Assembly: GCA_040903745.1 (NCBI GenBank)
Contig: JBBDUV010000080.1
Span: forward strand, 5,560 to 69,559
Direction of reading: 5' to 3'
Source: Bacteroidales bacterium
GTDB lineage: Bacteria; Bacteroidota; Bacteroidia; Bacteroidales; GCA-2748055
DNA length: 64,000 nt
Within the stretch, counting starts at the first letter, position 1. Every line of letters starts with the position of its first letter. Below the pieces are notes generated by a model. It did not search any database. It was not told the DNA's origin and was given only the letters and a program-made list of their open reading frames with translations. Shown here piece after piece: positions 8,265 to 64,000 of this stretch. A program made the position numbers and the translations under genes.

Positions 8265-10448
8265 TCAGTCGCAACCCATATTTGGATCGCCCCCTAAATT
8301 AATATAATCCTGTAATATTTCTTTATCGTAAACATGCCAATTACTAAAGCTATTATTTCGTTGAAGATCGACAGGTATGTACATTTCATCCATCGCATTA
8401 GTGTATTGTATCCAATAGCAATAAGCTTCAGCCATTGCATCCCTTGCCTCGGATTGATTTCCAGCCATTGAGTGCATAGCGGCCCGGTATTTATTGGCAC
8501 TATACAGACTAAGGTTTGCCAGGCATTTAATATCGCTGAGATTGTATTTCAAATCGATATTTGATCCGTAATCCAAGCTTTTGAGCAATTGTTTGGCGCT
8601 TAAAGCGAGTTCTTCTATTTTATCGGCATTATCCCATGCAGAAGTTTTACCATTACAATTGTTATTCACAGTTGCCTGAAAATCACAAAGATTTGAACCT
8701 TCAAATGGCCTGGTATTTTTAGTGTCATCAAGTGAATAGTGACCGCCGCCATTTGTACCATAACTCCACATTTCCGGATACCAATCTGCATCTCTTCTCC
8801 AATCACCCGTAACCTGTTCATTGGCAAGCACCATTGCTGCAGAAGCCTTACTCCAAGCCTGAAAAAGGCTTTCTATATTTAGGCTTGGGTATTTAAACGC
8901 AAGATGCTTTTTAAATAAATCATTTGAAACATCCGGATTATACCCAATTCTTCCCCAGATCTTCTGCATATACCATGTTTTCTGAGCACTGAGGGCCCTT
9001 TTGTCTCTGTAGTAATGGTCCTTTGCCGTAAACTCCCGGGTAAACGACCAGCCGTCCGAACCAATATAAAAGCCCACGGGATCTATCCAAAAGTTATTGA
9101 TATAGTTTCGGGCGTATTCGGGGTCGGCCCAATGGAGAAAATAAAAATCATCATTACGGAGATTAAACCAAATTCTAAGTGGTGGATTTGCATTAGAAAC
9201 CTCATAAATATTTGCAATACTATTTTTCCTGTAAGCAGGCGTATAATTTCCATGCATATGAGCAAGAGAATACTTGTGTGACAAATCAAAGGTGATATTA
9301 CTCTGTTCTATCAAGGGATTGAATGTTTGTTCAATGAGAGTTCCCAATGCAAGATGGATTCTAAATATAAAGTTTAGATCTCTTCCAGGGTGTGTCTGGG
9401 CATATTCTAGAGTTCCTCGCCCGTAGGTATCGTACAACCATCCTATTTTCTCAGAATCAGATCCATCAAGATTTTCCCCAGCGGTTATACCTATTCCCTT
9501 CACCAAAGGATAAGTTTCTAAAAATTTAACAACGCATTTACGCATGTATGTCCTGGTCTGATCATTAGCAGGGTCGTCTGTGATTCCATGTTTTCCATCG
9601 GCACCATAAACATAAATATTCCAGGTAAACAAATAAAATTCAAAGCCCCTATTGGCGCCATACTCCATGACATCCTGCCAGAACTTAATTTTTTCGTCAA
9701 TAGTCATGGTTTTGGTAAATTGTGGAAATCCGGCCTCACTATACCCTTCAACATTTTGAATGGCAACCCCGGGGTATTCATCTTCCATATTCACCATAGA
9801 AGTGAAAGGATGGCTTGCCCAAAGAGAAAGCAAATTATAACGATTACGGGCCATTTCATCAAACCAGCTTGTCCAGTAGTCCATATCCCATACATTACGG
9901 ATAGCATTCTGGTGTGAAGTTCCATTGTTTCCCCTCATGTAAGTTGATGATTCTGCGTCAAAGGGGATGTTTAATTTAATCCCACGTCGGCTTATTGCGG
10001 GGGAATCTTCCTCGTTGTAAGATCCGTTAAATCCGTCAAAATTGATGTACTCCGCAACTTGCAAGCCGCCATACATGGCTCCGTTATTATCGCCACCCAG
10101 CACCCAGAAACTAAAATCAGGTGTAGTGGTTGTGGATAGAGCATATGCCTGTTCTCCAAGTACGCCAGGTGCACTACCGCCCTGGTTTGCTAGTAAACTA
10201 GTTACACTTGTGTTATCAGAAAGGGCAATGACAACTTTTTTACCAATGTCTCCAGAAGACAAGGTCGACAAATCCTGAAAAACAACAGTATAACTGTCAT
10301 CTTCGAGAGCTGTTTTAATGTCATTGGCTGCGAATTCATGCTGTGGTACAGACAAATCGAAGTAAACATTAATCTCTTGACCATAAACAAAGGAATTAAT
10401 AAATGATAAAACAACAACTAGTAAAAGGTAAAATTTAGAGATTTTCAT
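8265..10448 (-). CDS. Uncharacterised module-B protein (GH20b/GH67N-like N-domain + TIM-barrel-like core + helical C-terminus), putative glycoside hydrolase
   Basis: 727 aa with a signal peptide. Motifs shared with 43338..45533, 50554..52680 and the middle of 28559..33139: EQAYAL.TTT...W.LGGDN.GAMYGGLQ.AE, RGIKLN.PFD, WDM..W..WFD.MAR.RYN.L.LW..HPF.SM, G.T.GE. Confidence 0.6.
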   Translation of the reverse strand: MKISKFYLLLVVVLSFINSFVYGQEINVYFDLSVPQHEFAANDIKTALEDDSYTVVFQDLSTLSSGDIGKKVVIALSDNTSVTSLLANQGGSAPGVLGEQAYALSTTTTPDFSFWVLGGDNNGAMYGGLQVAEYINFDGFNGSYNEEDSPAISRRGIKLNIPFDAESSTYMRGNNGTSHQNAIRNVWDMDYWTSWFDEMARNRYNLLSLWASHPFTSMVNMEDEYPGVAIQNVEGYSEAGFPQFTKTMTIDEKIKFWQDVMEYGANRGFEFYLFTWNIYVYGADGKHGITDDPANDQTRTYMRKCVVKFLETYPLVKGIGITAGENLDGSDSEKIGWLYDTYGRGTLEYAQTHPGRDLNFIFRIHLALGTLIEQTFNPLIEQSNITFDLSHKYSLAHMHGNYTPAYRKNSIANIYEVSNANPPLRIWFNLRNDDFYFLHWADPEYARNYINNFWIDPVGFYIGSDGWSFTREFTAKDHYYRDKRALSAQKTWYMQKIWGRIGYNPDVSNDLFKKHLAFKYPSLNIESLFQAWSKASAAMVLANEQVTGDWRRDADWYPEMWSYGTNGGGHYSLDDTKNTRPFEGSNLCDFQATVNNNCNGKTSAWDNADKIEELALSAKQLLKSLDYGSNIDLKYNLSDIKCLANLSLYSANKYRAAMHSMAGNQSEARDAMAEAYCYWIQYTNAMDEMYIPVDLQRNNSFSNWHVYDKEILQDYINLGGDPNMGCD

Positions 10449-10459
10449 TTTGCTGACTT

Positions 10460-10625
10460 TTATTGGTTATAATTATAATTACGATTTTTTGTTCTTTTTA
10501 CTGTTCCTTCTTCATTATATACAGCACTATATATATGCCTGTGCATAATTCACAGCGCTTTGCGCTAATACCAATCTTCCGGTGAAAAAACTTAAAAATA
10601 CCAGTAGTGCTAATTTGTAATTCAT
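10460..10625 (-). pseudogene. Heavily deleted gene remnant (signal peptide fused out of frame to a GH43-like C-terminal tail)
   Basis: Hand translation gives MNYKLALLVFLSFFTGRLVLAQSAVNYAQAYI*. A second frame reads ...HRHIYSAVYNEEGTVKRT..., resembling the GH43 tail ICHDELFYNADGTIKEV of ORF 14869..15807. Confidence 0.3.
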
Positions 10626-10665: not shown

Positions 10666-11877
10666 TTAAATTTTTGCTATTTTACTTCCTCCCGACATAC
10701 GCAACATTACAACACCATGAGCAGGAACAACTTTATCGAAATTCTTATCTGTTTTTCCTAAGTTTTTATGTTCCCACAAATCTCTCATTTCCCAATCATT
10801 ATCTATATAAAACTTTTCTCCACGATGCGTGATGCGATACTTTTGCCAGTCGAAATCGAGTTTTATTTCTTTGTCTGAGCGGTTTAAAAAACAAACAGCT
10901 AATTCGTCCTCCGAAAGGAATTTAACCCATATTTCCAAATCGCCGAAATCGATGTATCGGAATCCCTGGTATCCCAATGGATTCTGGTTAATTGCAATCA
11001 CTTCTTCATTCGTAAAAATCTCTATGGTTTTATCACTCATCGATCTCAAATCGCAACCTGCCATAAGTGGAGCCGCCATCATGCTCCATAAACTAAACTG
11101 TGTTTTATATTCTTCAAATGTTTGAGCACCGTTTCCTATTTCCAGCATATCCGGATCGTTCCAATGACCTGGTTTAGCATATTTCCAAAGATTTTCATTT
11201 AGGTCAACAATTTGCATTGTTCCTGAGAAATTAGGTTCAAGGGTACAATCAAAGCAATCGCGAATATCTCCGGTAGTACGATACAAATGGCCAATATTGT
11301 CAGGCCACGTCCATGGCTGATTGGTTCCCCATTCACAGATACTTAAAACAATGGGGCGTCCACATGCTCTTAATGCTTTGCTCATAGTAGTATAAGAGGC
11401 TTGCGCATTTAATTCTCCGTGGTTACACCAATCATATTTAAGATAATCTACACCCCATTGGGCAAATGTCCTGGCATCCTGGAATTCATGACCGCGACTA
11501 CCTGGCCTACCCTGACAGGTCAGATCACCGGCACAAGAGTATATCCCGAATTTCAATCCCAGTGAATGGACGTAGTCAGAAAGTGCTTTAATTCCCGATG
11601 GAAAGCGCACCGGATCGGGCATCAATTCGCCATTTTCATCGCGATCCACTTGCCAGCAATCGTCAATTACAACATATTGATATCCGGCATCCTTCATGCC
11701 TGATTCAGACATGGCATCCGCGATTTCCATCACCAGCACTTCATTAATTTCACATCTGAATTTATTCCAGCTGTTCCATCCCATAGGTGGAGTTCTTGCG
11801 AGTTCATCAAAGGATTGGCTTAGGCCTGAAAAAGAGGAAAAAATGGCGAGCAAAAGGAGAATTTTTGTTTTTTTCAT
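10666..11877 (-). CDS. GH27 alpha-galactosidase
   Basis: 403 aa with a signal peptide. Contains PPMGWNSWNKFRCEINE, VVIDDCWQ and WGVDYLKYDWCN (nucleophile region), plus a C-terminal beta-sandwich. Confidence 0.9.
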   Translation of the reverse strand: MKKTKILLLLAIFSSFSGLSQSFDELARTPPMGWNSWNKFRCEINEVLVMEIADAMSESGMKDAGYQYVVIDDCWQVDRDENGELMPDPVRFPSGIKALSDYVHSLGLKFGIYSCAGDLTCQGRPGSRGHEFQDARTFAQWGVDYLKYDWCNHGELNAQASYTTMSKALRACGRPIVLSICEWGTNQPWTWPDNIGHLYRTTGDIRDCFDCTLEPNFSGTMQIVDLNENLWKYAKPGHWNDPDMLEIGNGAQTFEEYKTQFSLWSMMAAPLMAGCDLRSMSDKTIEIFTNEEVIAINQNPLGYQGFRYIDFGDLEIWVKFLSEDELAVCFLNRSDKEIKLDFDWQKYRITHRGEKFYIDNDWEMRDLWEHKNLGKTDKNFDKVVPAHGVVMLRMSGGSKIAKI

Positions 11878-11899: not shown

Positions 11900-12498
11900 T
11901 TATTTTACTTTGAAAAAGCCTGTGCCATGAGGGCTTACTTTAACTGTGAATTCGGTTTGTAGTTTACCAATATCCTTTTGTCTCCATAAATCGCGCACCG
12001 CACCTTTCTTGCCAAGTTTCTCTGCTGTAATTGAAATATTTTGTTCCTCATCTTATAAATTGAATAAGGCGACTGCTTTACTGCCATCTTCTAGATCTTT
12101 GGCCCAGATTTCATAACTGCCTTCTTCTTTTTCTACCCTGTATCCCTGCTTGACCAATGGATCCTGGTTTATAGTAAAGTGATAACATAATCACCGCTTT
12201 GCTGTGGAGCCCTGCCTGTTATCCATTCTGTGGTGGCATCGATCTGCACTTCATTCGGCAAACCCTCAGCTGCATATGTTATAGGTTTTATTCCAGAAAC
12301 TGCTACATGGTAAAATACAGGCTTGCCGGGGCGTACACCCAAAACAGAAGCTCCATTAATTTGAGCTTCGTCTTTAGCTGCAGGAGTTAAAATTTCTTTG
12401 CCATTAATTGTGGCATCATATTCTAAAGGTGCATTATTACAAGCAAATAAAATGCATGCTAAACTTAAAAAAAATATGTACTTAACGATTCTTTTCAT
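11900..12498 (-). pseudogene. Alpha-galactosidase (GH27-type) pseudogene lacking the catalytic core
   Basis: The 109-aa ORF is a lipoprotein signal plus an Ig-like domain. After a frameshift comes NQDPLVKQGYRVEKEEGSYEIWAKDLEDGSKAVALFNL*DEEQNISITAEKLGKKGAVRDLWRQKDIGKLQTEFTVKVSPHGTGFFKVK*, a typical GH27 C-terminal domain with an in-frame stop. Confidence 0.7.
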
Positions 12499-12861: not shown

Positions 12862-14670
12862 TTACCTTTCCAGCAAAACCTTTTTATAAACTGAATTTTG
12901 ATCGAATACGATGTGAGCTATCAATAATTCTTCCGCTTTAAATTTCTCAACATCAATTTCAAAATGCGTTTCAAATGTATTCTCAGAAATCAATAACTGG
13001 CCCCTGGTATTGAATATCTTTATGTGCTTTTCTGAAGTTGATTCAGGTAAATCAAAATGAAGCTTTATAGATGTGGGATTTGGATATACTTTAATAACGC
13101 CGCTCTGCCTGTTAGTCAGAATAGCACCAATGACTTCAGATCCATCAACCAGGACAATACACTGAGCGCTGTAACCGCCATCATTCGTAGTGACTTTAAT
13201 GATGGAATTTCCCATTGAAACTATTGTAAGAAACCCGCTTGAATCCACGGTGGCAACTGAGGTATTTGATGAACTCCAGCTAACTGATTTGTCATCGGCA
13301 TCGTCAGGAAAAACAGTGGCAGTGAACTGGAAGGTTTCACCTGCATGAAATAATATGGAAGGACAATCGTCAATTGCTACACCATTTACTGAAATTACCG
13401 CTTTACTAATTTCGACCTCGCACTGATCGCTAAGCCCTCCATCGTTAGTAGTGACTGTAATTGTTGCCGCTCCATCTGAAATAGCAGTAATCAGACCGCT
13501 TTCATCAACAGTGGCAACTGTGATGTCTGAAGAACTCCAGTTGACAGATGGATCATCTGCATCAGCCGGGGAGACATTGGCAGTTAATTGTTGGGTGTCG
13601 CCAACTGAGAGACCACTGTTTGGGCAGTTGGATAGGTTCACACTACTTACATCAACAGTTTGCTTTACAAACTTAATAGCATCAATGTCAAATCCGGCAC
13701 CATTTACAAATTCCAATTTCAGAATTTTTTTACCGCTGCTTGTTAATAAAATGTTTTCAACACATAGAGAATCACGTTTATCCCATCCCTTATTCTGCAT
13801 TCCGCTGAAGGTGCTAATAATCTCACGACCAAGGCTAACAACCAGGTCACCGGCAGTTTCACCACAAAAATAAAACAGTGAGATATTGTAGTTGCCTGAA
13901 GTTACATCAACAGTGTATTCGAGCCACTCACCACTTTGTGAATGTCCAACAACGTAGCCATTGCTGGCTTCACTATTATTAATAATATCCACATTATCTA
14001 AAGGCCTTTGCGTTGCGTCGCCCTCTTTCGTATCGTCATCATGATAAGCAATACTTTCACCACCTAAATCATAATGTTCAGCTTCTATTGATCCGGGGAT
14101 TGTTCTGTTTGATCCACTATAAGGCTCTTGAACAGGAGGATCACCTCCCTCGACCTTGAAATAGTCTAATCTCATAAGTTCGGTGCCTGTACCCTTGAAG
14201 ACGAGGTAGATGTTTTTATCGCCTACGCTATTTGAGAGTTCACAGTTTAAAGTCTGGTAGTTTGTCCAGCTTCCTGTATTGGGTACCGCACAAGACCCCA
14301 ATAAAGTCCCGGTGGTACTGCCCTCGCGGATTTCTATTATACCGCCATCGGAATTAGCTGAGGAAACACGAAAACTTATAGGTGAATTCGCTACCATGTT
14401 CCTGATATTTGGATAGTACAGATATGTATTTTCCCCAAGGTCTCTCAATTCAAATCCGCTTGAATTTTCTCTCTTGCTTGTACCATCGGACGCCGCAAAA
14501 TACCATTCTGCCTGTATTGTCCATTTAGAATCATATTGTCCAACACCGAGGGATGATTGTGCTATAAAATCGTCGAGTACACAATCACCATTGTCTTTAT
14601 AATGAAGGTAGCTTATATTATAATACTCCCCATTTCCTGTACCAAAAATCTGATTTATTAAGTTAAACAT
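12862..14670 (-). CDS. Non-catalytic CBM6/35-like x2 + Big_2 x2 + T9SS C-terminal sorting domain protein (probably N-terminally truncated)
   Basis: Contains TGSWTNYQT...LDYFKV and IEAEHYDLGGESIAYHD...GEWLEYTV...IDAIKF (CBM6-like), two Big_2 repeats (...QQLTANVSPADADDPSVNWSSSD...) and a C-terminal VYPNPT... sorting domain. There is no signal peptide at the annotated start. Confidence 0.65.
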   Translation of the reverse strand: MFNLINQIFGTGNGEYYNISYLHYKDNGDCVLDDFIAQSSLGVGQYDSKWTIQAEWYFAASDGTSKRENSSGFELRDLGENTYLYYPNIRNMVANSPISFRVSSANSDGGIIEIREGSTTGTLLGSCAVPNTGSWTNYQTLNCELSNSVGDKNIYLVFKGTGTELMRLDYFKVEGGDPPVQEPYSGSNRTIPGSIEAEHYDLGGESIAYHDDDTKEGDATQRPLDNVDIINNSEASNGYVVGHSQSGEWLEYTVDVTSGNYNISLFYFCGETAGDLVVSLGREIISTFSGMQNKGWDKRDSLCVENILLTSSGKKILKLEFVNGAGFDIDAIKFVKQTVDVSSVNLSNCPNSGLSVGDTQQLTANVSPADADDPSVNWSSSDITVATVDESGLITAISDGAATITVTTNDGGLSDQCEVEISKAVISVNGVAIDDCPSILFHAGETFQFTATVFPDDADDKSVSWSSSNTSVATVDSSGFLTIVSMGNSIIKVTTNDGGYSAQCIVLVDGSEVIGAILTNRQSGVIKVYPNPTSIKLHFDLPESTSEKHIKIFNTRGQLLISENTFETHFEIDVEKFKAEELLIAHIVFDQNSVYKKVLLER

Positions 14671-16241: not shown

Positions 16242-17828
16242 TTATTCGAAGGGCTTTTCTTCTTTATCACCCGGATTCACCCAACCTGTATTGTTAATGG
16301 TAAACTCTCCGGCCATAAAACGTTCATAGTAATTCCATGCTCTTTCTTCTGAATAATCATAGGTATTGAAAATATCACCATTCCCAAACATGCGCGGGTC
16401 TTGCTGTTCTTTTAACATTGTTTCCATTCGCGTTTTCATTTTGGCTTTCAGTTCTGCATATTCCGGATTGTTAGCCAGGTTGTTCATGCATTCCTCATCT
16501 TTGGTAATATTGAAAAATTCTTCATTTGATTCACGTTTTCCCATAGAAAGTTTCCAGTAGAAGTCATTTTCACCCGACCTGAAAAGCCGTAAAATTTCAG
16601 TTTTGGTAGGTGACCCGTCAATATCGAGGTAGCCAATTTCGGGGTTTCCGGCCGGCCAAAGCGAAATATCATAATTGTACAGGTACATGTAATCATCAGA
16701 AATAATACCTCTTATCGGGAAACCCTGGTTTTTAGGACGACTGTAATCATGTCTTTCTTTTCCGATAAGAACAATATCTCTTTCAAAATTCACCTGACCG
16801 TCTTTTTCTGAATAAAGAATATCGGTTAGGCTTTTGCCCGGAGAACTTTGCATGCCTGATTCTTCGAAAGGTATTCCGGCTAATTCTAAAAAAGTTGGCG
16901 CCAAATCAATTAAGCTAACCATGTCTTTTACTGTGCGTCCGGGATTTTTGATACCCTTTGGCCACATTGCTGCCATCGGGACATGATTTGAATACTCATA
17001 TTCCTGAGCTTTTCCGCGGGGGAACGGCATTCCATGGTCTGAAGTTTGAATAATGATTGTATTTTTCAGCAATCCACGCTCTTCGAGTGCTTTAATCATG
17101 CGACCGAGATGCCAGTCGGCGTATTCTATTTCAAGGGCATAATCGAGCATGTCGTTCCGAATGATTTCATTATCGGGCCAGAAAGCAGGGACTGAATCAA
17201 TATCAGAAATTTGTTTGTTTTTTACCCGGTTTCCTGATCCATATTCATACCGGCGATGTGGCTCGCGTGCACCATACCAGAAAAACCAGGGCTGACCTTC
17301 TTCTACAGTTTCCAAAAAGGCTTCAAAGTTGGCGGCATAGTCTTCGTTGCTCATTCCTTTTGCCCAGGGTTGCATTTTAATATCACCAAATTCCTGATCA
17401 ATGAATTTTCTTAACTCACCGTCAATAAATCCCGGATGACCTGGCCCCCAGACTTTACCTGTAAATGCCGTTAAGTAACCATGCTCGCGCAACACTTCAG
17501 GAAAAGTTTTAAATTTTGCCGGAAAATTCAGCACGTGGTTTGCCGCTTCTTCCAATTGCCATGAATTACGCCCTGTTAATACGCTGGATCTCGAAGGAGC
17601 ACATTTCGCGTTAGGAGTATAAGTATTTGTAAATAAAATTCCATTCTCTGCCAACCTTTCGAAAGCAGGTGTTTCGACCCAATCGTAACCATACGCACTC
17701 ATGTGCATGCCGGCATCATCCATGATGCAGAAAAGGATGTTTGGTTTTTTATTTTCGTTTACAACGGATGATTGTTTGCAACCTCCAACTATTATAGTCA
17801 GCGCTATTAAAAATAAGTTTAGTTTCAT
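16242..17828 (-). CDS. S1 formylglycine-dependent sulfatase (lipoprotein)
   Basis: 528 aa. Signal ends GGC. Contains NILFCIMDDAG...NAKCAPSRSSVLTGR (CxPxR) and a downstream SDHG motif. Confidence 0.9.
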   Translation of the reverse strand: MKLNLFLIALTIIVGGCKQSSVVNENKKPNILFCIMDDAGMHMSAYGYDWVETPAFERLAENGILFTNTYTPNAKCAPSRSSVLTGRNSWQLEEAANHVLNFPAKFKTFPEVLREHGYLTAFTGKVWGPGHPGFIDGELRKFIDQEFGDIKMQPWAKGMSNEDYAANFEAFLETVEEGQPWFFWYGAREPHRRYEYGSGNRVKNKQISDIDSVPAFWPDNEIIRNDMLDYALEIEYADWHLGRMIKALEERGLLKNTIIIQTSDHGMPFPRGKAQEYEYSNHVPMAAMWPKGIKNPGRTVKDMVSLIDLAPTFLELAGIPFEESGMQSSPGKSLTDILYSEKDGQVNFERDIVLIGKERHDYSRPKNQGFPIRGIISDDYMYLYNYDISLWPAGNPEIGYLDIDGSPTKTEILRLFRSGENDFYWKLSMGKRESNEEFFNITKDEECMNNLANNPEYAELKAKMKTRMETMLKEQQDPRMFGNGDIFNTYDYSEERAWNYYERFMAGEFTINNTGWVNPGDKEEKPFE

Positions 17829-54222: not shown

Positions 54223-54440
54223 ATATATAAATCCCTTAGGTAAATAACTTCCTCATCGGATGAGGAGATAATTTCAAGACCAACATTATCAACATACCAT
54301 TTTGCCGTTGCTTCCTTATCGGGAACATTAATGCGTAAATGTTCAAACCTAATTGCTTTGAGCTCCTCCTTTAAGTTTTGAGAAAAGTTGTTTATGGGAA
54401 GAAAACAAACTAATAGAAAAATTTGAAGTAGTGTTTTCAT
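54219..54440 (-). pseudogene. Truncated VOC/glyoxalase-family fragment
   Basis: 73 aa: a signal peptide plus one half-module (RFEHLRINVPDKEATAKWYVDNVGLEI). A full VOC domain is roughly twice as long. The stop overlaps the next ATG (ATGA). Confidence 0.4.
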
Positions 54441-54455: not shown

Positions 54456-54830
54456 CTAAATTTCTACAATTGCATCAATTTCAACAAGGGCATTTTTTGC
54501 CATTTTTGATACCTCAACACAGGCCCTTGCAGGCTGCTGATTGGTAAAATAGGTGGCGTATATTTGATTCATAACCGCAAAATCATTCATATCCTGAAGA
54601 TAAACGGTACATTTCACGACTTTCTCCATATTCGTTCCGGCAGCCTCTATGATTGCTTTCAGATTTTCAAGCACCTGTGATGTCTGTTCTTCAATGGTTT
54701 GCGCAACCTCTCCCGTTTGTGGATGAATGGGTAACTGCCCACTGGTAAAAAGGAATCCGCCTGTAATAACCCCCTGATTGTATGGTCCTATTGCTGAAGG
54801 TGACTTTTCTGTTTTTATTATTTTTTTCAT
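54456..54830 (-). CDS. ridA: RidA family reactive-intermediate (enamine/imine) deaminase
   Basis: 124 aa. Contains PSAIGPYNQGV...FTSGQLP...ARACVEV...VEIDAIV, which is canonical YjgF/RidA. Confidence 0.9.
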   Translation of the reverse strand: MKKIIKTEKSPSAIGPYNQGVITGGFLFTSGQLPIHPQTGEVAQTIEEQTSQVLENLKAIIEAAGTNMEKVVKCTVYLQDMNDFAVMNQIYATYFTNQQPARACVEVSKMAKNALVEIDAIVEI

Positions 54831-54832
54831 AA

Positions 54833-55798: not shown

Positions 55799-55827
55799 TT
55801 TATATTCCTTTTAATATTTATTTTTAC

Positions 55828-56748
55828 TTATTCATTCTCTAAAATAGCCCATGCTAAGTTCAGTACCCGCTTTGCATTTGCAACAACAATATCGGCATCT
55901 TCATCTCCAACCGGCTTAACCTCAAAACTTAAAAAACGTCTGTTGTCAGGGTTTAAGTAACCTATTTCCATCAGTACTTTAAGATATTCAACCAGTTCAT
56001 CTACATCATTTTCACCACCAGGATATCCGAAACGGGGATGTGCATCACCAAAAGCAGGATCCTGCTTATCTTTCATCATACAATTACCCATGTGCGCGTG
56101 GATGATGTAATCTTTGACGGGGATAAGTGATTGACGGGCCGTCTCGTGTATTATAGGCAAGTGGCTAAGATCAACCATGAGTCCAAAATTGTCAAACTCA
56201 GCACAAATTTCCTCTGCATATCTTTTTGCCAGATCAACGGGGCCTACAAGGGAGCATTTATCAATATCAAAATCAAACACTTCGTGCGCAATTTTCATAT
56301 CCCCTTTGGATTTGGCATAGGCACAAATTTCTCGTGTAGATTTGACCAGCGACTGATAGGCTTCTTCTTTCTTGTCTTCGCTATACTTCCCACTCAAAAA
56401 CCCAAAACCAACGGCCCCAATTTCATGGGCTTCATCTATGCCTTCCTTCAGGTTAGCTACAGCTATTTGTCTTTTCGTTTCATCAAGGTCATTAATGTTT
56501 TGTCCTGTAGTTAATAATCGTGGTTGTCCACCATAAGCGATGCTTAAGTGCGAACTGTCGAGCATTTTTTTAACTCTTTTACGGACTTCTGCATCTTTAA
56601 TCCAGGTTATCTCAATGGCATCGAAATAGTCGTCAACTGCAATTTTTCTTATGGTTTCCTCAATGGGTCCTTCTCCTTTAATTGTCGAAGGATAGGCCAT
56701 AAAGTGAATTAGCCCAATTTTTGCATACTTGTTAATTGAATCTTTCAT
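55828..56748 (-). CDS. Xylose-isomerase-like TIM-barrel sugar(-phosphate) isomerase/epimerase
   Basis: 306 aa with the general AP_endonuc_2 pattern (...HEVFDF...MVDLSHL...HAHMGN). Hydroxypyruvate isomerase belongs to this fold. Confidence 0.6.
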   Translation of the reverse strand: MKDSINKYAKIGLIHFMAYPSTIKGEGPIEETIRKIAVDDYFDAIEITWIKDAEVRKRVKKMLDSSHLSIAYGGQPRLLTTGQNINDLDETKRQIAVANLKEGIDEAHEIGAVGFGFLSGKYSEDKKEEAYQSLVKSTREICAYAKSKGDMKIAHEVFDFDIDKCSLVGPVDLAKRYAEEICAEFDNFGLMVDLSHLPIIHETARQSLIPVKDYIIHAHMGNCMMKDKQDPAFGDAHPRFGYPGGENDVDELVEYLKVLMEIGYLNPDNRRFLSFEVKPVGDEDADIVVANAKRVLNLAWAILENE

Positions 56749-56765
56749 AATTGATAATCATTTTA

Positions 56766-57917
56766 TTATTTAATTTTTACCGCGTTCCAAAGTCGCACCA
56801 CATTTTCAGCCGAATTTTCCAGTAATTCTTTGGTATTGGCTAAAGCCTCTTCCAATAACATGGGCCTGTCAATAATTGAATAAATACAATCAAAACCGCT
56901 ATTGTATAAAGTAGAATAACCTGGGCCAAGGCTTCCGGCCAAAGCAACAACAGGAATGTTCATTTTCCTGGCAATTTGAGCAACACCATAGGGTGTTTTT
57001 CCAAAAGCAGTTTGAGCATCCATTTTTCCTTCACCTGTAATCACTAAGTCAGCACCACAAATTATCTCATCAAGTTTTAATAGCCGGGTAACAATATCGA
57101 TGCCTCTCTCAAGCCTGGCATTTAAGAAAAGCATCACAGCGTATCCCAGACCGCCTGCTGCACCTGTCCCGGGTAAGTCTTTTATATCAAGCCCCAAACT
57201 ATTTTTTACGATATGGGCAAAATGAACAAGCCCTTTATCCAGGGTTTCTACATCACTATCGCTGGCACCCTTCTGCCTCCCATACACATTTGAGGCACCG
57301 TTTTGTCCGCACAAGGGATTGTCAACATCACAAGCCGCAATAAATTTCACGTTGCTTACCCTGTCATCAATTCCTGATACATCAATGGTTCTGATCCTGG
57401 ATAATTCATGGCCGCCGACATGAACGCTATTCCCGTTTTCGTCAAGAAAACAAACACCAAGTGCTTGCGCCATGCCTATTCCACCATCGTTTGTTGCACT
57501 GCCCCCAAGGCCAAGTATTATGCTCGTACAACCTTTATCCATAGCGTCTTTAATCAACTCACCGGTTCCATAGGAAGTGGTCTTCAATGGATCTCTTTCT
57601 TCAGGCTTTAACAAGGGAAGGCCGGAAGCAGCAGCCATTTCAATTACCGCAGTTTTACCATCTCCCAATATCCCGTAAAATGAATCTATTGTTCTGAATA
57701 AAGGGTCATGAACAGTCGTTTTAATGATATCTCCCCCTGTAGCATCAATTAATGATTGCACAATACCTTCGCCACCATCAGCCATCGGGACAACTATGGT
57801 GTCGATATCATGACCGACCTTTACTATTCCATCCCGAATAGCATTTCCTACCTCAAGTGCAGATAAACTGCCTTTAAAAGAATCAGGAGCGATAACTATT
57901 TTCATTCTCTTCTGCAT
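56766..57917 (-). CDS. Glycerate kinase (GlxK/GarK family)
   Basis: Contains KIVIAPDSFKGSLSALEVGNAI...VPMADGGEG...ITGEG.D.QT..GK. The likely start is MKIVIAP at nt 57905. It overlaps the end of the upstream permease. Confidence 0.9.
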   Translation of the reverse strand: MQKRMKIVIAPDSFKGSLSALEVGNAIRDGIVKVGHDIDTIVVPMADGGEGIVQSLIDATGGDIIKTTVHDPLFRTIDSFYGILGDGKTAVIEMAAASGLPLLKPEERDPLKTTSYGTGELIKDAMDKGCTSIILGLGGSATNDGGIGMAQALGVCFLDENGNSVHVGGHELSRIRTIDVSGIDDRVSNVKFIAACDVDNPLCGQNGASNVYGRQKGASDSDVETLDKGLVHFAHIVKNSLGLDIKDLPGTGAAGGLGYAVMLFLNARLERGIDIVTRLLKLDEIICGADLVITGEGKMDAQTAFGKTPYGVAQIARKMNIPVVALAGSLGPGYSTLYNSGFDCIYSIIDRPMLLEEALANTKELLENSAENVVRLWNAVKIK

Positions 57918-58860
57918 TTTGTCTGGCTAATTCCTTTTTCCTGTTTTGTTTTGCGACGAAAGTTGTCAGCACAGGAACCAGAATAGCAGTTGTTATAGTT
58001 GATGCAGCTACCTGAGGTGCAGCTATGGCAGCAATACCTGCTAAAGAAGGATCTACCATAGCAACAGCAGCTGGTGTTGCAACGGCGTTTCCGGCCGTAC
58101 TGGAAGAAGCTGCACCTGCAACTCCGGTTCCTCCGGAAGCTTTATCTGCCAAGATATTAAAAAAACCGCCAAAAACAACAGTAAATACACCAAGCAAAAT
58201 TCCCGGGAGTCCTGCTTTTAGTAGCATATCCATGTTAAGACCACAGCCTAAAGCGAAGGCAAAAAACGGGATGAGCATAGGACCACCCTTCATTAAAAAA
58301 TCCCGCATCTCTTTGTCAAGGTTACCTACCAACATTCCCAGAGCTATAGGTAGTACAACCCCCAGGAGTGACAAAAATGGGATAGATGCTATCCCGGCCG
58401 TACCTAACGCAATCATAGTTAAAAAGGGCCCATCGTTAATCGATATGATAGCAATAGCGCCAATTTCTGATTTCTTTCCAAATTCACCAGCAAGTGCTGC
58501 ATACAATCCCCCATTGGTATTGGTCATTGCCGAAATAACGGCCAGCGAAGACAAACCCCATAATCCTTCTACACCAAAAAATTTAGCCACTGCTAATCCA
58601 ATCCCAACACCAACGCCAAACTTCACCACAGTAAGAACAAACCCGGTTTTAATTGCCCTGGGGGCAGCTTTTACATCCATGCCTGCACCCATACAAAATA
58701 AAAACACCCCAATAATAGTGGTTGCACCCGTTGCAATAGCAGTTGTAAACCCTCCAATATTTAATACTCCGGGGGCCAGGGTATTGATTATCGCCCCAAG
58801 AACCAGTGGAATTACCATCATCCCACCGGGAATTTTTTCTATAGCTGCCTTTATTTTCAT
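57883..58860 (-). CDS. KdgT-family (2-keto-3-deoxygluconate-type) acid-sugar permease
   Basis: 325 aa and polytopic. MKIKAAIEKIPGGMMVIPLVLGAIINT is a typical KdgT N-terminus. Confidence 0.8.
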   Translation of the reverse strand: MKIKAAIEKIPGGMMVIPLVLGAIINTLAPGVLNIGGFTTAIATGATTIIGVFLFCMGAGMDVKAAPRAIKTGFVLTVVKFGVGVGIGLAVAKFFGVEGLWGLSSLAVISAMTNTNGGLYAALAGEFGKKSEIGAIAIISINDGPFLTMIALGTAGIASIPFLSLLGVVLPIALGMLVGNLDKEMRDFLMKGGPMLIPFFAFALGCGLNMDMLLKAGLPGILLGVFTVVFGGFFNILADKASGGTGVAGAASSSTAGNAVATPAAVAMVDPSLAGIAAIAAPQVAASTITTAILVPVLTTFVAKQNRKKELARQNAEENENSYRS

Positions 58861-58934: not shown

Positions 58935-61181
58935 CTATTGGATTAAAATTAATTTTTTTGTTGAGACAATGCCATTCTCAGTCTCCAAACGGCATAAATA
59001 CAAACCGTTAGCAAGCGGATTCCCTTTTTTATCCCTTGCATCCCACTCGACACTAAAAAGCCCCTCATTATGATATTCATTCACTAAAACAGCTATTTTC
59101 TGCCCGGTAAAATTGTAAACTGCAAGGGTTGCGTGCCCTGTGCTGCTCAACAGGTAGGGTATATTGGTTTTTACACTAAAAGGGTTCGGGAAATTCTGCC
59201 CCAATGTACTTTGGCCTGGAACGGGGTTCAACACATCGCCTACACTGGTTATTGGTGAAAACAGAGCTGTTACCTCTATGTTAGCAACCACATTAAAGGA
59301 TACCGGATTGTCCGTTCCGCTCAGGTCGCCGCTCCAGCTACTGAACGCATAGCCTTCATCGGGTATGGCTGTAAGTGTAACAACTGTTCCCTTACTATAA
59401 GAGCCTCCCGGCGGATTCAGCTCCACCTGGCCATATTCTGATTCAATGTTCAAGCTGTAGATAGGGACTATTTCAAAAGATGCTGAAACATGTTTGTCTC
59501 CATCCATTGTAAGAGTAATCGGGTTTACGGTACCTGATACATCTCCTCCCCATGACTCGAACGCATAACCCAAATCGCCAACTGCCGTAACTGTAACCAC
59601 TGTTCCCTGCAAATACGAACCGCCTGCAGGATCTAAAATAAGTGATCCATTGGGCGTTTCGGATGTAATTGTATATTTTGGTAGTTCAACTGTTGGGTCA
59701 TAGTTTAAACTTTTATCGTTGAAGGGATCATCAAAATTAAAATCCTGAGGTAATTCCTCAACCGTATTGCTGCTTGTATTTATGATGGCAAGTGGATGGC
59801 GACCACCATTGATATAGTTGGCGGTCGCAAACCTCAGGGCTGGCAGATTCCCGCCGGGATCGAGTACGGCAAGTGCAACAATATAGCTCCCCCCGGGAAC
59901 GTTAACACTGAATTCCTCTTCGACGGTATTCTCTTCAGGAGGATTTGCCCAGCCGGTTACTCCTGTGCTGTTCCAATTTTCATGTGGCACATTGGTCCTC
60001 CAGCCACCAACAGGTGTCCATTCCGGTTCTGTCCATCCGCTACCGGGCAACCAGTCCCTGATATCAGCATTTTTCATAGTCGATGTCCAAACCGGGGTTA
60101 AAGTTGTTGGATCCAACAACGAAACTTCAACAGGCCAATCATAATAAAAGGGAGCGGAACCTTCGTTGGTCACATCAAACGAAATGCTTAATGAATCACT
60201 CACCCCTACCCTGACTTCATTAAGCACGTACCGGTATCCAAATGCTTTTTGGATCTCTTCAGCACCTGCCACTGCTGCCGCATTGTTTCTGTCGTAACCA
60301 GCTATCCAACGGAGCTGGGTGCAATGCAGCCAACGAATAGAGTTAATAACAAAATTCCGGTGTTTTTCAATAGCTACACTGCTCGTTGGTGAGGGTCCCG
60401 GTTGTATATCCCCATTTCCCCAGTTGTAAGCTACCTCACCACCTATGTAATTATGTAAATAACGATCCTTTGTACTGTTTACATTATGAATACTCTTTCC
60501 GTGGGGCCACATCTGATCATAATGCGCCCAGGAATCCCAATACTCACCAAAAGGCTGTTGTGTAAACTGGTCCCAAAAATGCCTTACCGATACCTTTTTA
60601 TTTTTAAAAGCTTCGGCAAATGCATCTCCGACCAACTTTTGCATCTTAGCCGTTGGCGAGGGACCATGGTGTTCACCCCATTTTCCGAATATCCCCAATT
60701 CTACAAAAGCTACCCGGGGATCATTGTCCCAGGCGATACCAAGCCTTTCTATCAGGCGCAATACCCTTTCCTGAAATTGTTCACTTGTATAGTCATCCGC
60801 TTGCATATCCGATGGCCAGTATTTTTGGTTGTCAGCACTCCAATGTAAATAAACCCGTGGGATCGCTTTTTTATTGGCAGAAGCCAAACCACCCCACTTT
60901 GCATTTGAAACTGCCAATATTTTATCAAGTCCGTCAGACTCCTTATTTTCTAACTCATTCCATTTGATATAGGTATGGTTTGCTGAGGCCCAGGGATGCT
61001 TGTTGTCTCCATGAGTAAATCCCATCATAGGGTTACGAAGCGCACGCTCATAGGGGGTTGGTGTTATGCTCAATGGATTGTCGCTTTGTGAATAAACCGC
61101 TGACATGGATGTGATAAAAACCATGGCAATGGCTAAAATCTTAAAAAAGACCGCTGAAATTTTATTGAAAAAAGTGTTCAT
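58935..61181 (-). CDS. Module-C protein: DUF4874/DUF4832-like TIM barrel + 2 InlB-B-type (Listeria-Bacteroides) repeats + T9SS C-terminal sorting domain
   Basis: I choose the start at Met25 (MNTFFNKISAVFFKILAIAMVFITSMSAVYSQ). Contains ALRNPMMGF, KWNELE, IPRVYLHWS and DPRVAFVELGIFGKWGEHHG. Two repeats follow (G.YAF.SW(G/S)GD(V/L)SG), then a C-terminal NFPNPF...LYLCRLE... sorting domain. Confidence 0.6.
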   Translation of the reverse strand: MNTFFNKISAVFFKILAIAMVFITSMSAVYSQSDNPLSITPTPYERALRNPMMGFTHGDNKHPWASANHTYIKWNELENKESDGLDKILAVSNAKWGGLASANKKAIPRVYLHWSADNQKYWPSDMQADDYTSEQFQERVLRLIERLGIAWDNDPRVAFVELGIFGKWGEHHGPSPTAKMQKLVGDAFAEAFKNKKVSVRHFWDQFTQQPFGEYWDSWAHYDQMWPHGKSIHNVNSTKDRYLHNYIGGEVAYNWGNGDIQPGPSPTSSVAIEKHRNFVINSIRWLHCTQLRWIAGYDRNNAAAVAGAEEIQKAFGYRYVLNEVRVGVSDSLSISFDVTNEGSAPFYYDWPVEVSLLDPTTLTPVWTSTMKNADIRDWLPGSGWTEPEWTPVGGWRTNVPHENWNSTGVTGWANPPEENTVEEEFSVNVPGGSYIVALAVLDPGGNLPALRFATANYINGGRHPLAIINTSSNTVEELPQDFNFDDPFNDKSLNYDPTVELPKYTITSETPNGSLILDPAGGSYLQGTVVTVTAVGDLGYAFESWGGDVSGTVNPITLTMDGDKHVSASFEIVPIYSLNIESEYGQVELNPPGGSYSKGTVVTLTAIPDEGYAFSSWSGDLSGTDNPVSFNVVANIEVTALFSPITSVGDVLNPVPGQSTLGQNFPNPFSVKTNIPYLLSSTGHATLAVYNFTGQKIAVLVNEYHNEGLFSVEWDARDKKGNPLANGLYLCRLETENGIVSTKKLILIQ

Positions 61182-61552
61182 ATTTAAATTATTTATCCAT
61201 AATAATAACAATAAACCGATCAATATCGTCCTCGCGCCTGGTCTGTTAAACATTATTTAATTTCTATATACTATTATCTTCAGAAACCCATTTTCTTTAA
61301 TCCCAGCTCTTGTAACACTAGATATAGCTATGATTAAACAACATATATTAAAAAGTGCCATTCTCATTTGCAACTCTTATAAATGTGATGAAACTAATTC
61401 GATTCCTTTATTGTGTCCAAGATTCCTGGAATATTGCCTGTCTGCCGGATTATTCCAATGCTCGTGTACACCTAAGCTTTCAAGGAGAGTTCCGTCATTT
61501 TCCGGATCGTATTTTGTTCCTGAAGTTTCAGGGTTTTCCCTCCCCGGACTTC

Positions 61553-63187
61553 TTAATTTAATTTTTGAAAATAGGGCAACCGCTCTAATGGGACTTCAAT
61601 TTCAATTGTTCTTCCTCCCTTTATAATTTCTCCTTGTTCACTTTCCCATTTTCCTTTTGGAAAAACTACCGAGCGTTTACGGGCACCCTCTTCTAACACA
61701 GGTGCTACCATAATATTATCACCTAACATAAATTGATCCTTTATGGTTTCAAATGCTTTATCCGGATAGGATAGTGCCATAGGTCTAACGATAGGTTCGC
61801 CAGTTTTTGATGCACGCTTTGCCAATTCCATAATTGTCGATCCCATTTCCAAATGGAGATTAGCCATATCAGCGCAAATTTTCATATTTTCAGTCGACAA
61901 TACCCTCCAGGGCGCAACAGAAAACTGCATCATAGGCATTAAAGCGTGTACCTGAGCAGAACGTACCACCAACTCCTCATCGATGGTTGATGATTTTAAA
62001 AATGATTGGTATTCTCCTCCGCCAATCATATCGGGACAGGTATAACTATATCCCATCAAACTCTGAGACATTTGGTCGGGGATTAGTTTTTTTAGATCCC
62101 CCCAACCATGCGTTTTATCTCTTAACCTTTGAACCAATGGTAATCCGGCCATTTTCCATGCAGCCCGGTACTCGTTATATGGGTATCTCAGGCCCAATTC
62201 AGCAAAATATTGCGTATGTCTGTTAGGGGAAACATCTTCATAAGATACCACACCACCGGTATAAAATCCAGCATCCCCTGCATCTAACTTAAATCCATCA
62301 ACGCCGTATTCTTCAACCAAATAGTCCAATTCACCTATGAACCAATCCATCGTTCTGGGATTACTTAGATCCAGACAGGCACTTGCTCCATTCCACCATC
62401 GGATGATTGCTGCTCTGTTCTGCGTATTTGCCCACAAAATATCTTGCGTTCTCTCAACATCCAATAACAACATTCCCTCCTTTGCCAGATACCTGAATAC
62501 TTCAGTGTCGGCAGTAACAAACGGACATACCCAAAGCATTACCTTAAAGCCCATGTCATGCAATTTCCTGATCATCCCCTTAGGGTCCTGAAACTTTTCT
62601 GCAGCAAATCTCCATGTCCCATAATTGGCTTGCCAGTTGTCATCTATCATGATAACACCCGGGGGAAATCCATTGTCAAGTATAGCTTGGGCATAATTTA
62701 AAATATCCTCTTCATTCTGATTGTACATTAATTCAATCCAGGTATTATACTGAGGATGTGAAAAAAACATATCCGGTGGAACTTCACCATTCGGAGGAAA
62801 AAAGTTTTGACTAACAAATTGGTAAGCCTCTGAAAGATTATTTCCAGCTGTACCATAACTAATCTTTCCGTCTCTGGATGTTACAATAAGTTTACCGTTA
62901 TTGAACGAATATTTAATTGGTTGCTCGCACCAAATATATCTTCCTTTACTGGATAACAACAAAGGCTGGGCCTGATTCCCTGCATTATTGCCCCAAAGAT
63001 CATATTCGGCCACAGAAGTGACATCATAAGGCATTTCATAGCCAACAGAGCTTAAGCCTCCCCACCAGTATTCATCCGATTCGATCACTATTTCTAACCT
63101 ATCCGGGGAGGATGCAAATAATTGTGAGCTTATCATACATATCAGGATTAGCTGTAATCCTATTTTCAGTTTAGTAAATACTTTCAT
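61553..63187 (-). CDS. GH31 family glycoside hydrolase (short alpha-glycosidase subfamily)
   Basis: 544 aa with a signal peptide. Contains GVIMIDDNWQ, FKVMLWVCPF and GVDGFKLDAGD. Confidence 0.75.
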   Translation of the reverse strand: MKVFTKLKIGLQLILICMISSQLFASSPDRLEIVIESDEYWWGGLSSVGYEMPYDVTSVAEYDLWGNNAGNQAQPLLLSSKGRYIWCEQPIKYSFNNGKLIVTSRDGKISYGTAGNNLSEAYQFVSQNFFPPNGEVPPDMFFSHPQYNTWIELMYNQNEEDILNYAQAILDNGFPPGVIMIDDNWQANYGTWRFAAEKFQDPKGMIRKLHDMGFKVMLWVCPFVTADTEVFRYLAKEGMLLLDVERTQDILWANTQNRAAIIRWWNGASACLDLSNPRTMDWFIGELDYLVEEYGVDGFKLDAGDAGFYTGGVVSYEDVSPNRHTQYFAELGLRYPYNEYRAAWKMAGLPLVQRLRDKTHGWGDLKKLIPDQMSQSLMGYSYTCPDMIGGGEYQSFLKSSTIDEELVVRSAQVHALMPMMQFSVAPWRVLSTENMKICADMANLHLEMGSTIMELAKRASKTGEPIVRPMALSYPDKAFETIKDQFMLGDNIMVAPVLEEGARKRSVVFPKGKWESEQGEIIKGGRTIEIEVPLERLPYFQKLN

Positions 63188-63575
63188 TTGTATTAATTCT
63201 TTATTTAAATGATTGATATATAATAATATAAATATCGTTTTAACTACATGTAAGTTATTCGTCCTCCTACGTCGGCCTCATGAGCTCCACTTCGTTCCGG
63301 TTGTTACCTCGCATAATAAAATATTCAAATTCAAAGCAAGTCATGTACTTTGAGTAATTCAAATATATATCTTTAACAATAATACATTGGATGATAATAT
63401 CTCAAAATGGGTACAGAAATTGTTCTCCAAAATATAAACTGACCTTTTATCAATAATATGCTATTGTTTTAAAATATAAGGGATGGCCTTTTGGGAGATT
63501 GCCCCATTATTTTTATATATTTGAGTCACCTTCTAAAAGTCTCTTTGTGTTTGAATTCAACAATCTAAAAATAAA

Positions 63576-64000
63576 ATGATGAGAAATTTCGCACTCGTAT
63601 TAACATTGGTTTTGGGAATCATTTCCCCGAAAATTTATTCACAGACCGGTATACAGGAATTCGCCCCGACTCCTCCACTTGGATATAACAGTTTTGATAG
63701 TTACAGAAGCAAATTAACTGAAGAAAAAGCCTTTGCCTTGATCGATGTGATGGCGGAGAAGTATCTGCCTTTTGGTTATAATTATTTTGTAATGGACGCA
63801 GGGTGGTACAGTGCCTATATCCCAGAAAAACATGATGATTTAGGACTGGAATCATTTGGACTATGTGTGGTTCATCAACCCTATTTCCCCAATGGAATTA
63901 AAGCGCTAATTGATCATGCCCACGAAAAAGGGTTAAAATTTGGTGTGTGGCTTATGCGCGGAATCCCAAGAGAGGCTGTTGAGCTTAATCTTCCTATTCC
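63576..64000 (+). CDS. GH27-like (clan GH-D) alpha-galactosidase-like hydrolase, 5' part only (runs off the window)
   Basis: Hand translation MMRNFALVLTLVLGIISPKIYSQ...PPLGYNSFDSYRSKLTEEKA...FVMDAGWY...GLKFGVWLMRGIPREAVELNLPI. Third paralog of 17831..19210 and 36115..37542, and the only plus-strand gene right of 8.2 kb. Confidence 0.75.
   Translation, partial: MMRNFALVLTLVLGIISPKIYSQTGIQEFAPTPPLGYNSFDSYRSKLTEEKAFALIDVMAEKYLPFGYNYFVMDAGWYSAYIPEKHDDLGLESFGLCVVHQPYFPNGIKALIDHAHEKGLKFGVWLMRGIPREAVELNLPI

Follow-up and report, generated by a model that had tools for sequence, protein, structure and literature searches.

A sulfatase- and glycosidase-rich gene array of an uncultured Bacteroidales bacterium as the probable central part of a larger Sus-type island for polysaccharide utilisation

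Introduction

The chitin locus of Flavobacterium johnsoniae is a Sus-type polysaccharide utilisation locus (PUL) with an enzyme, ChiA, that is secreted by the type IX secretion system (T9SS). In PULs of this type, a SusC/SusD pair heads a same-strand array of glycosidase genes, large enzymes carry T9SS sorting domains, and the remaining proteins have ordinary or lipoprotein signal peptides. The locus described here shares these features. It lies in a stretch of 64,000 nucleotides (hereafter the window) of contig JBBDUV010000080.1, from an uncultured member of the Bacteroidales most closely related to Mariniphaga and Prolixibacteraceae. It differs from the F. johnsoniae type in being larger (about 74 kb), rich in sulfatases and composed mostly of unassigned or distant enzyme families, and in that genes on the opposite strand intervene between its SusC/SusD pair and most of the others. 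The window appears to be the middle of a larger Sus-type island for the use of a sulfated polysaccharide, a reading to which we assign a probability of about 0.65.

Three other systems offer partial parallels. The rhamnogalacturonan-II loci of Bacteroides thetaiotaomicron encode glycoside hydrolases (GH) of family GH138 (BT0997; structure of BPa0997, PDB 6hze), GH95, GH43 and GH2. The present locus likewise has a GH138-like family (module A), a broken GH95 gene, a GH43 enzyme and a GH2_N-like protein. Unlike those loci, it has sulfatases and at least seven copies of module A, and it lacks pectin-specific lyases and enzymes of GH28, GH78, GH105 and GH106. The B. thetaiotaomicron sulfatases BT1636 and BT1622, which act on mucin O-glycans, have the same CAPSR formylglycine motif as g24966, g37551 and g45632 of the window, whereas the GH33, GH20, GH29 and GH84 enzymes of mucin use are absent here. 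The fucoidan plasmid of Lentimonas represents a type of sulfatase-rich cluster, found in Verrucomicrobiota and Planctomycetota, that lacks SusC/SusD. Such clusters also interleave many sulfatases with exo-acting glycosidases, and the combination of module A, GH27-like, S1_20-like and domain of unknown function (DUF) 5060 genes occurs in metagenome-assembled genomes (MAGs) of Akkermansiaceae and Opitutales (L019, L021, L040). In contrast to the Lentimonas type, the present host belongs to the Bacteroidales and has SusC/SusD nearby, and in Opitutaceae module A adjoins TonB-dependent receptors.

Genes are named here by the letter g and their start coordinate in the window, and L-numbers denote sampled loci or contigs. 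Coordinates are collected in Table 1.

Organisation of the array

The block between positions 8265 and 63187 contains 28 open reading frames (ORFs) that are 150 aa or longer, and every one of them lies on the minus strand. The first-pass annotation had described a co-directional locus reaching to the end of the window; this holds for the block, while the gene at 63576 is on the plus strand and divergent. Six intergenic gaps of 420–984 bp interrupt the block, which argues for several transcription units rather than one operon. The array is also not confined to the interval first proposed, as it runs on past both window edges. On the left, a DUF5060 gene crosses the edge, so that the island of carbohydrate-active enzyme (CAZyme) genes extends leftward. 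Contig L002, which is 100% identical to window positions 1–2827, carries this DUF5060 gene in full, followed by a paralogue of the DUF1080 gene. Among species-representative genomes the nearest is a MAG of Mariniphaga sp. (L012), with 79–90% aa identity over four genes.

SusC/SusD beyond the right edge

It had been proposed that degradation at this locus is secretion-based rather than Sus-like. Had this been so, secretion alone would have sufficed for a member of the Bacteroidales to digest a sulfated glycan, which would be unusual. The underlying observation is sound: no ORF of the window matches SusC/TonB, SusD, a hybrid two-component system (HTCS), an extracytoplasmic function (ECF) sigma factor, a radical-SAM anaerobic sulfatase-maturating enzyme (anSME) or a formylglycine-generating enzyme (FGE). 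The Sus-free reading itself does not hold, because the flanking DNA contains a SusC/SusD pair on the same strand past the right edge.

This flank is covered by contig JBBDIF010000032.1 from an NCBI MAG (L001/L086) and by a Logan contig (L087), both of which are 100% identical to window positions 59803–64000; L086 and L087 agree on the gene order beyond the window. Moving away from the window, the rest of the GH27-like gene is followed by two module A genes, of 707 aa and 877 aa (WD577_11385). Next come two RidA genes on the other strand, a 171-aa piece with Flg_new_2 and a sorting domain, and a GH3 gene. The outermost genes encode an 883-aa protein with malectin, four Flg_new_2 repeats and a sorting domain, a SusD protein of 622 aa and a SusC-like receptor of 1061–1104 aa with a Plug domain. 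Apart from the two RidA genes and the GH27-like gene, everything in this extension is on the strand of the block. The SusD gene ends 13.5 kb past position 64000 and the pair spans 13.5–19 kb beyond the edge, equivalent to window positions of about 77.5–79.4 kb for SusD and about 79.4–82.6 kb for SusC. The SusD_RagB match reaches 41.2 bits (cut-off 23.1). From SusC to position 8265 the distance is about 74 kb. The extension is further supported by NCBI records: the window gene g23173 (WD577_11265), the 877-aa module A gene (WD577_11385) and a 343-aa GH3 C-terminal protein of the same 90% cluster (MEX2428843.1) all belong to one MAG and to one contig of 106,079 bp.

The 883-aa malectin protein is encoded directly after SusD (L086 2762–5413, window-equivalent ~74.6–77.3 kb). 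This position is usually held by a lipoprotein that acts as a surface glycan-binding protein, and the malectin protein may likewise bind glycan, anchored through the T9SS.

Conservation of the enzyme set

Searching species-representative genomes with the module A alignment yielded 79 loci, in Bacteroidota, Verrucomicrobiota, Planctomycetota, Myxococcota, Armatimonadota, Fibrobacterota, Sphingomonas, Paenibacillus and others. Many are from MAGs of lakes, groundwater or soil, as judged from record titles. The families that recur within 10 kb of module A are GH27-like enzymes, S1_20-like and other sulfatases, DUF5060, DUF4832, GH43 with a carbohydrate-binding module (CBM) of family CBM6, and module B. 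Several of these loci also have genes for transport or regulation nearby. The homologous cluster of a member of the Chitinophagales (L004) begins with a SusD gene, an HTCS gene lies beside module A genes in Ferruginibacter (L028), and TonB-dependent receptors adjoin module A in loci of Opitutaceae and Sphingomonas (L037, L048, L049, L058, L059). A T9SS-type DUF4832 enzyme accompanies GH43 and module A in a Mariniphaga locus (L090). As SusC/SusD and T9SS cargo co-occur both here and in relatives, they are not alternatives.

In some relatives the members of the enzyme set are divided between loci: L003 and L010 belong to one MAG, and L004 and L025 to one contig. Orthologues of the 877-aa module A gene are solitary and in unrelated contexts in L089 and L091, so the association of module A with the enzyme set is frequent and not universal.

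The block also contains a five-gene operon for a KdgT-family permease, a glycerate kinase, a sugar isomerase/epimerase, a D-2-hydroxyacid dehydrogenase and RidA. In L010, L073 and L092 this operon is found in synteny with the enzyme set, so its link to the glycan pathway is probably real. In the window, a 73-aa glyoxalase-like stub (54219–54440) lies beyond RidA. The operon of L092 ends with RidA and a full glyoxalase-like protein of 300 aa, which indicates that the window copy is truncated.

Sulfatases

Five S1 sulfatases had been recognised in the window, at 16242, 19223, 24966, 37551 and 45632, and all are matched by Pfam Sulfatase (E 1e-44 to 1e-64). Each has a C-x-P-S-R motif, either CAPSR or CNPSR, and they are thus of the Cys type. 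The protein g24966 matches the structures of BT1622 (E 4e-129) and BT1636 (E 3e-119), S1_20 sulfatases of B. thetaiotaomicron that act on 3-O-sulfated galactose and N-acetylgalactosamine (PDB 7ana and 7an1; PMC10154620). The other two S1_20-like proteins, g37551 and g45632, are its paralogues (48–50% identity). By blastp, g37551 is 50% identical to g24966 and 81% to g45632. At the sequence level, all three resemble S1_20 galactose-3-sulfatases. The remaining two are more distant: g16242 is weakly related to S1_8 and S1_11 structures (PDB 9bb9, E 1.5e-35), and g19223 matches PDB 6hhm (E 2e-55) and iduronate-2-sulfatase (E 3e-40). The true start of g19223 is probably an internal methionine at about residue 53.

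The genes g37551 and g45632 are unevenly similar to each other. About 385 nt of upstream sequence and the first ~60 codons (~180 nt) are ~98% identical, and the remainder ~80%. The shared upstream stretches (window positions 38967–39386 and 47057–47601) include a remnant of 29 aa that is DUF5060-like. These near-identical 5′ ends suggest either recent gene conversion or a conserved regulatory leader.

Type IX secretion and protein targeting

Three T9SS type A sorting domains were reported in the window and all three were recovered. The TIGR04183 scores are 28.1 bits for g12862, 24.2 for g39387 and 35.3 for g58935 (cut-off 23), and the corresponding Pfam scores are 29.6, 28.0 and 25.2 (cut-off 27). 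By eye, hydrophobic N-termini are present in g39387 and g58935 and absent from g12862, and only the former two look like functional cargo. Residues 12–589 of g39387 are 45% identical to the module B protein g23173, and the architecture of g58935 is also found in the Mariniphaga locus L090.

The third protein, g12862, probably represents the 3′ half of a GH43-CBM gene that has come apart. It is separated from the GH43 gene by a 198-nt AT-rich spacer, and relatives have a fused GH43-CBM6 ORF of 604–605 aa. A similar break was observed beyond the window, where a stop and a change of frame divide GH3 from its Flg_new_2 and sorting domain (L001 860–1010/L086 5563–8294). With the catalytic half split from the sorting domain, both the GH43 and the GH3 enzyme would go unexported by the T9SS.

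Judged by eye, most other proteins of the block have a hydrophobic, signal-peptide-like N-terminus. A lipobox-like cysteine is present in at least five, including four of the sulfatases. The GH27-like g36115 also appears by eye to be a lipoprotein, with a cysteine after its signal sequence. A PUL would normally have such a set of periplasmic and surface proteins.

Glycosidase families

The three paralogue families termed modules A, B and C are real by blastp, and the GH43, DUF5060 and DUF1593 assignments that had accompanied them were likewise borne out by Pfam. Module A is a full-length GH138 homologue at the sequence level. A single module A sequence matches GH138 BPa0997 (6hze) with E 4e-9 over 235 residues, and a profile of 36 sequences, sampled from several phyla, matches it with E 4.5e-58, with profile positions 14–684 aligned to chain residues 13–679. 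The catalytic glutamates of GH138 we take to be Glu-294 and Glu-361, the latter the nucleophile. In the column of Glu-294, 30 of the 36 sequences have glutamate and six have aspartate (E325 in g8265). The Glu-361 column holds alanine in 23, serine in 12 and valine in one, so that the second glutamate is conserved in none of the 36 module A sequences. The next residue is histidine in 34 of them, and HMMER and MAFFT alignments agree on this; in g8265 the two residues are A396 and H397. The loss of Glu-361 may reflect a changed mechanism, or an alignment shift at about 20% identity. The PDB holds the structure of a GH138 E361S mutant.

The module A family is large, with 2,328 clusters at 50% identity for E values up to 0.001 and 592 for values up to 1e-30. 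Some sources refer to its members as an ‘alpha-glucuronidase family’, after a GH67N-like N-terminal domain. At least seven copies are present in the extended locus. The best match of g8265 in the species-representative genomes has 53% identity, and the divergent g50554 is 70–73% identical to genes of L003 and L004. An 878-aa paralogue (P0260, WD577_04050) on a 50.6-kb contig of the same MAG is 70% identical to the 877-aa copy beyond the window, which indicates that module A has expanded beyond the locus. The distant relative g33318 has a twin-arginine-like N-terminus (RRNFLK), a GC content of 0.49 against ~0.40 in its surroundings, and a top relative in the Planctomycetota (46% identity). It is possible that this gene was acquired horizontally.

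Module B comprises g23173, the N-terminus of g39387 and, weakly, the N-terminus of g28559; this last region also has a weak GH42 match (E 0.11). No Pfam or PDB match was obtained with single sequences, and a profile search of the PDB gave E values of 0.13–0.18 only. The AlphaFold2 (AF2) model of g23173 has a pLDDT of 89, and Foldseek places it closest to GH35 beta-galactosidases (E 7e-10, 10–12% identity). The model suggests that module B shares a GH35-like fold class, and membership of GH35 or GH42 is not demonstrated. Homologues of module B number in the hundreds and are without annotation.

Among the enzymes attributed to clan GH-D, the GH27 enzyme g10666, the GH27-like proteins at 17831, 36115 and 63576, and the GH31 enzyme g61553 stand. 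The three GH27-like proteins score above the Pfam Melibiase_2 cut-off, and the columns of the GH27 catalytic aspartates, D149 and D204 in g10666, are invariant in them. The GH36-like assignment of g26507 was not upheld: a GH97 match reaches 22.8 bits, below the cut-off of 32.5, and the match to the GH36 enzyme AgaA has E values of 0.06–0.2 over ~80 residues. A single-sequence AF2 model of this protein had a pLDDT of 36 and was discarded.

The best structural matches of the GH43 enzyme g14869 are 5a8c (E 2e-75) and 3qed (E 1e-63). A role as exo-beta-1,3-galactanase was considered for it and rejected, as the closest structures are of arabinofuranosidase/xylosidase types. The DUF5060 family of g20824 adjoins module A in nine related loci. 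A literature search for DUF4832, DUF4874 and DUF5060 gave no functional data.

Proposed pathway and substrate

In the proposed mechanism, the T9SS would export the module B-Big_2 x5, DUF4832-InlB-type repeat and malectin proteins, which would bind the polysaccharide and make the first cuts outside the cell. Fragments of a sulfated heteroglycan would then enter through the SusC/SusD pair that heads the same-strand array. In the periplasm or on lipid anchors, exo-acting sulfatases (three S1_20-like, one S1_7-like and one other) would remove sulfate. The glycosidases would follow: GH27, three GH27-like enzymes, GH31, GH43, at least seven module A proteins, module B, DUF4832, DUF5060 and DUF1593. 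An acidic product could be taken up by the KdgT-family permease and converted by the isomerase, the 2-hydroxyacid dehydrogenase and the glycerate kinase to phosphoglycerate.

The suggestion that the locus degrades a sulfated, galactose-containing glycan is reasonable and is sharpened by the S1_20-like sulfatases; the exact substrate is a matter of inference. Our best guess would be a branched, sulfated polymer, either a galactan or arabinogalactan-like, with galactose-3-sulfate, alpha-galactose or beta-L-arabinopyranose, arabinofuranose or xylose, and an acidic sugar. This fits the S1_20-like sulfatases, the GH27 family, the GH43 enzyme and the acid-sugar operon. Beta-L-arabinopyranose is sterically similar to alpha-galactose.

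Several points weigh against the reading of the window as part of one Sus-type island. The 343-aa GH3 C-terminal protein suggests that the window's own 106,079-bp contig ends inside GH3, with ~32 kb of it then lying left of the window, and the SusC/SusD pair has consequently been seen only on sibling assemblies of the same population. Neither the window nor the 16 kb read to its right contains an HTCS or ECF regulator; a classical two-component pair (3013–5291) flanks the block. Localisation was called by eye and by a lipobox pattern search, and the substrate is proposed from gene families. The two RidA genes and the GH27-like gene, all on the opposite strand, interrupt the array between SusC/SusD and the window, and the pair could serve only the adjacent malectin/GH3 unit. 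A serious rival, although a doubtful one in our estimate, is accordingly a mosaic of adjacent, independently regulated loci for different glycans, in which the window genes use other transporters encoded in the ~32 kb to the left or at another place in the genome, since it is by inference that a single SusC/SusD pair is taken to serve all 74 kb. Such a mosaic would account for the interruption between GH3 and the window, the several transcription units, the CAZyme genes past the left edge and the spread of the enzyme set over separate loci in relatives, and segmental duplication and gene remnants indicate piecemeal assembly. It is opposed by the repeated presence of the same families within 10 kb in unrelated genomes, which speaks for a single substrate common to most of these families, and by the InlB-repeat sorting-domain modules that tie the SusD-adjacent protein to g58935.

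A Sus-independent pathway, in which T9SS enzymes fully depolymerise the glycan outside the cell and the products enter by ordinary permeases such as the KdgT-family protein, is improbable. Its attraction lies in the absence of SusC/SusD from the 64-kb window and the next 13.5 kb, in the two credible T9SS enzymes of the window, one of which (DUF4832) is kept in Mariniphaga, and in the permease encoded within the block. Against these stand the SusC/SusD pair heading the same-strand array 13.5 kb past the edge, and the finding that credible T9SS cargo makes up two of about 28 block proteins; a lipobox-like cysteine is seen in five or more, and by eye most others have ordinary signal-peptide-like N-termini. 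Moreover, g12862 lacks a signal peptide, GH3 has lost its connection to the sorting-domain piece found past the right edge, and homologous clusters adjoin SusD, HTCS or TonB-dependent receptors. The broken and uncoupled genes (GH95, GH27, a module A copy, GH43 from its CBM and sorting domain, GH3 from its sorting domain) also count against a fully working island, part of which may be decaying. That the whole is a relic and no longer a working pathway is very improbable. The broken GH95, the dead GH27, the module A remnant, the DUF5060 fragments, the separation of GH43 and GH3 from their sorting-domain halves and the truncated glyoxalase-like gene all point in this direction. They are set against at least 28 long intact ORFs in the block, conserved sulfatase motifs and GH27 catalytic residues, and close orthologues with 70–90% identity in related genomes.

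The locus is an ordinary PUL with T9SS-exported components, and its value lies in the uncharacterised, co-occurring enzyme families rather than in its architecture. The recurring combination comprises the GH138-like family without the Glu-361 carboxylate, module B, DUF4832/DUF4874, DUF5060, GH27-like and S1_20-like enzymes, and the KdgT/glycerate-kinase/RidA operon. It recurs in at least five phyla, mostly in MAGs from lakes, groundwater and soil. Tentatively, it might constitute a dedicated cross-phylum pathway for an abundant sulfated glycan found in lakes, groundwater and soils, with several new glycosidase families or activities. Modules A and B are good targets for enzyme discovery and could help to identify a widespread sulfated polysaccharide.

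Gene remnants and flanking features

Table 1. Features of the 64,000-nt window in order of position, with the evidence for each assignment.
Position	Strand	Feature	Evidence or remark
1–1099	-	Second DUF5060 protein, N-terminal 366 codons (625 aa in full)	44% identity to g20824
1156–2709	-	Outer-membrane efflux protein, OEP/TolC-like	Pfam OEP, E 1e-24
3013–5291	+	Histidine kinase (3013–4578) and OmpR-type response regulator (4605–5291)	Pfam HisKA/HATPase_c, Response_reg/Trans_reg_C
5391–6425	+	Secreted protein, galactose-binding-like (GH2_N-type) domains	Pfam Glyco_hydro_2_N, E 8e-10; BetaGal_ABD2
6887–8225	+	Broken GH95, three ORF pieces (6887–7096, 7228–7707, 7692–8225)	Pfam GH95_cat
8265–10448	-	Module A, GH138-like glycosidase, 727 aa	PDB 6hze, E 4e-9
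10666–11877	-	GH27 alpha-galactosidase-type enzyme	Pfam Melibiase_2, E 4e-76; Melibiase_C
11906–12498	-	Dead GH27: N-terminal lipoprotein ORF and C-terminal remnant, barrel deleted	
12862–14670	-	CBM6-CBM35-Big_2 x2-T9SS sorting-domain protein	Pfam, TIGR04183
14869–15807	-	GH43, arabinofuranosidase/xylosidase type	Pfam GH43, E 9e-38
16242–17828	-	Cys-type S1 sulfatase, lipobox-like N-terminus	Pfam Sulfatase, E 2e-47; CAPSR
17831–19210	-	Divergent GH27-like enzyme	Melibiase_2, E 1e-11; 90% identical to Mariniphaga sp. L012
19223–20818	-	Cys-type S1 sulfatase, nearest S1_7-type 2-O-sulfatases	Pfam, E 6e-44; CNPSR
20824–22701	-	DUF5060 and Collagen_bind_2 protein, putative glycosidase	Pfam
22732–23133	-	Module A remnant, 133-aa ORF	42% identity to g8265 residues 246–333
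23173–24948	-	Module B, barrel and beta-sandwich, putative beta-glycosidase	AF2 model, Foldseek
24966–26417	-	Cys-type sulfatase, S1_20-like, lipobox-like N-terminus	PDB match 7ana, 7an1
26507–28534	-	675-aa secreted protein, weakly GH97/GH36-like	Sub-threshold match
28559–33139	-	1526-aa fusion: module B-like N-terminus, module A (residues 579–1289), Big_7	blastp, Pfam
33318–36041	-	907-aa distant module A relative	About 21% identity to module A
36115–37542	-	Divergent GH27-like enzyme	Melibiase_2, E 4e-15; Melibiase_C; 72% identical to L025
37551–38966	-	S1_20-like Cys-type sulfatase, lipobox-like N-terminus	Pfam; CAPSR
39387–43247	-	T9SS cargo: signal peptide, module B, CBM6-like, Big_2 x5, sorting domain, 1286 aa	
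43338–45533	-	Module A, GH138-like, 731 aa	57–69% identical to genes in loci of four phyla
45632–47056	-	S1_20-like Cys-type sulfatase, lipobox-like N-terminus	Pfam; CAPSR
47602–48528	-	DUF1080 (3-keto-disaccharide hydrolase family) protein	Pfam, E 1.5e-30
48667–50541	-	Module C, DUF4874/DUF4832, lipobox-like N-terminus	Pfam; 60–62% identical to L003, L004 genes
50554–52680	-	Module A, divergent subgroup, 708 aa	25–29% identical to other copies
52705–54222	-	DUF1593 (Sde182 nucleoside-hydrolase-like) protein	Pfam, E 5e-78
54456–58860	-	Cytoplasmic funnel operon, KdgT/glycerate kinase/isomerase/dehydrogenase/RidA	Pfam, NCBIfam
54456–54830	-	RidA	Fifth in transcription order
54833–55798	-	D-2-hydroxyacid dehydrogenase	Fourth
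55828–56748	-	Sugar isomerase/epimerase TIM barrel	Third
56766–57917	-	Glycerate kinase	Second
57883–58860	-	KdgT-family permease	First in transcription order
58935–61253	-	T9SS cargo: signal peptide, DUF4832, Flg_new_2 x2, sorting domain, 772 aa	
61553–63187	-	GH31 enzyme	Pfam Glyco_hydro_31_2nd, E 9e-27; C-terminal domain
63576–64000	+	Divergent GH27-like gene, N-terminal 141 codons (452 aa in full)	Pfam; full gene on L001/L086

The dead GH95 of the first-pass annotation is indeed a broken gene, placed outside the interval then proposed and on the plus strand. Its pieces cover GH95_cat positions 1–49 and 308–408, with 50–307 missing, and a signal peptide is present on the N-terminal piece. 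An independent Logan assembly (L082) is broken at the same places. The dead GH27 is present as a 109-aa ORF (12169–12498) and a remnant (11906–12175) that matches residues 295–394 of g10666 (tblastn, E 4e-8). The module A remnant lies 3′ of g23173, which suggests a decayed second module B-module A arrangement like that of g28559. Short DUF5060-like fragments are also found in the window.

No tRNA or Rfam family was found in the window. A sigma-70 promoter scan gave 42 sites against 46 expected from shuffled sequence, with a consensus that is unsuited to Bacteroidota. The OEP/TolC-like protein near the left edge is probably unrelated to glycan use.

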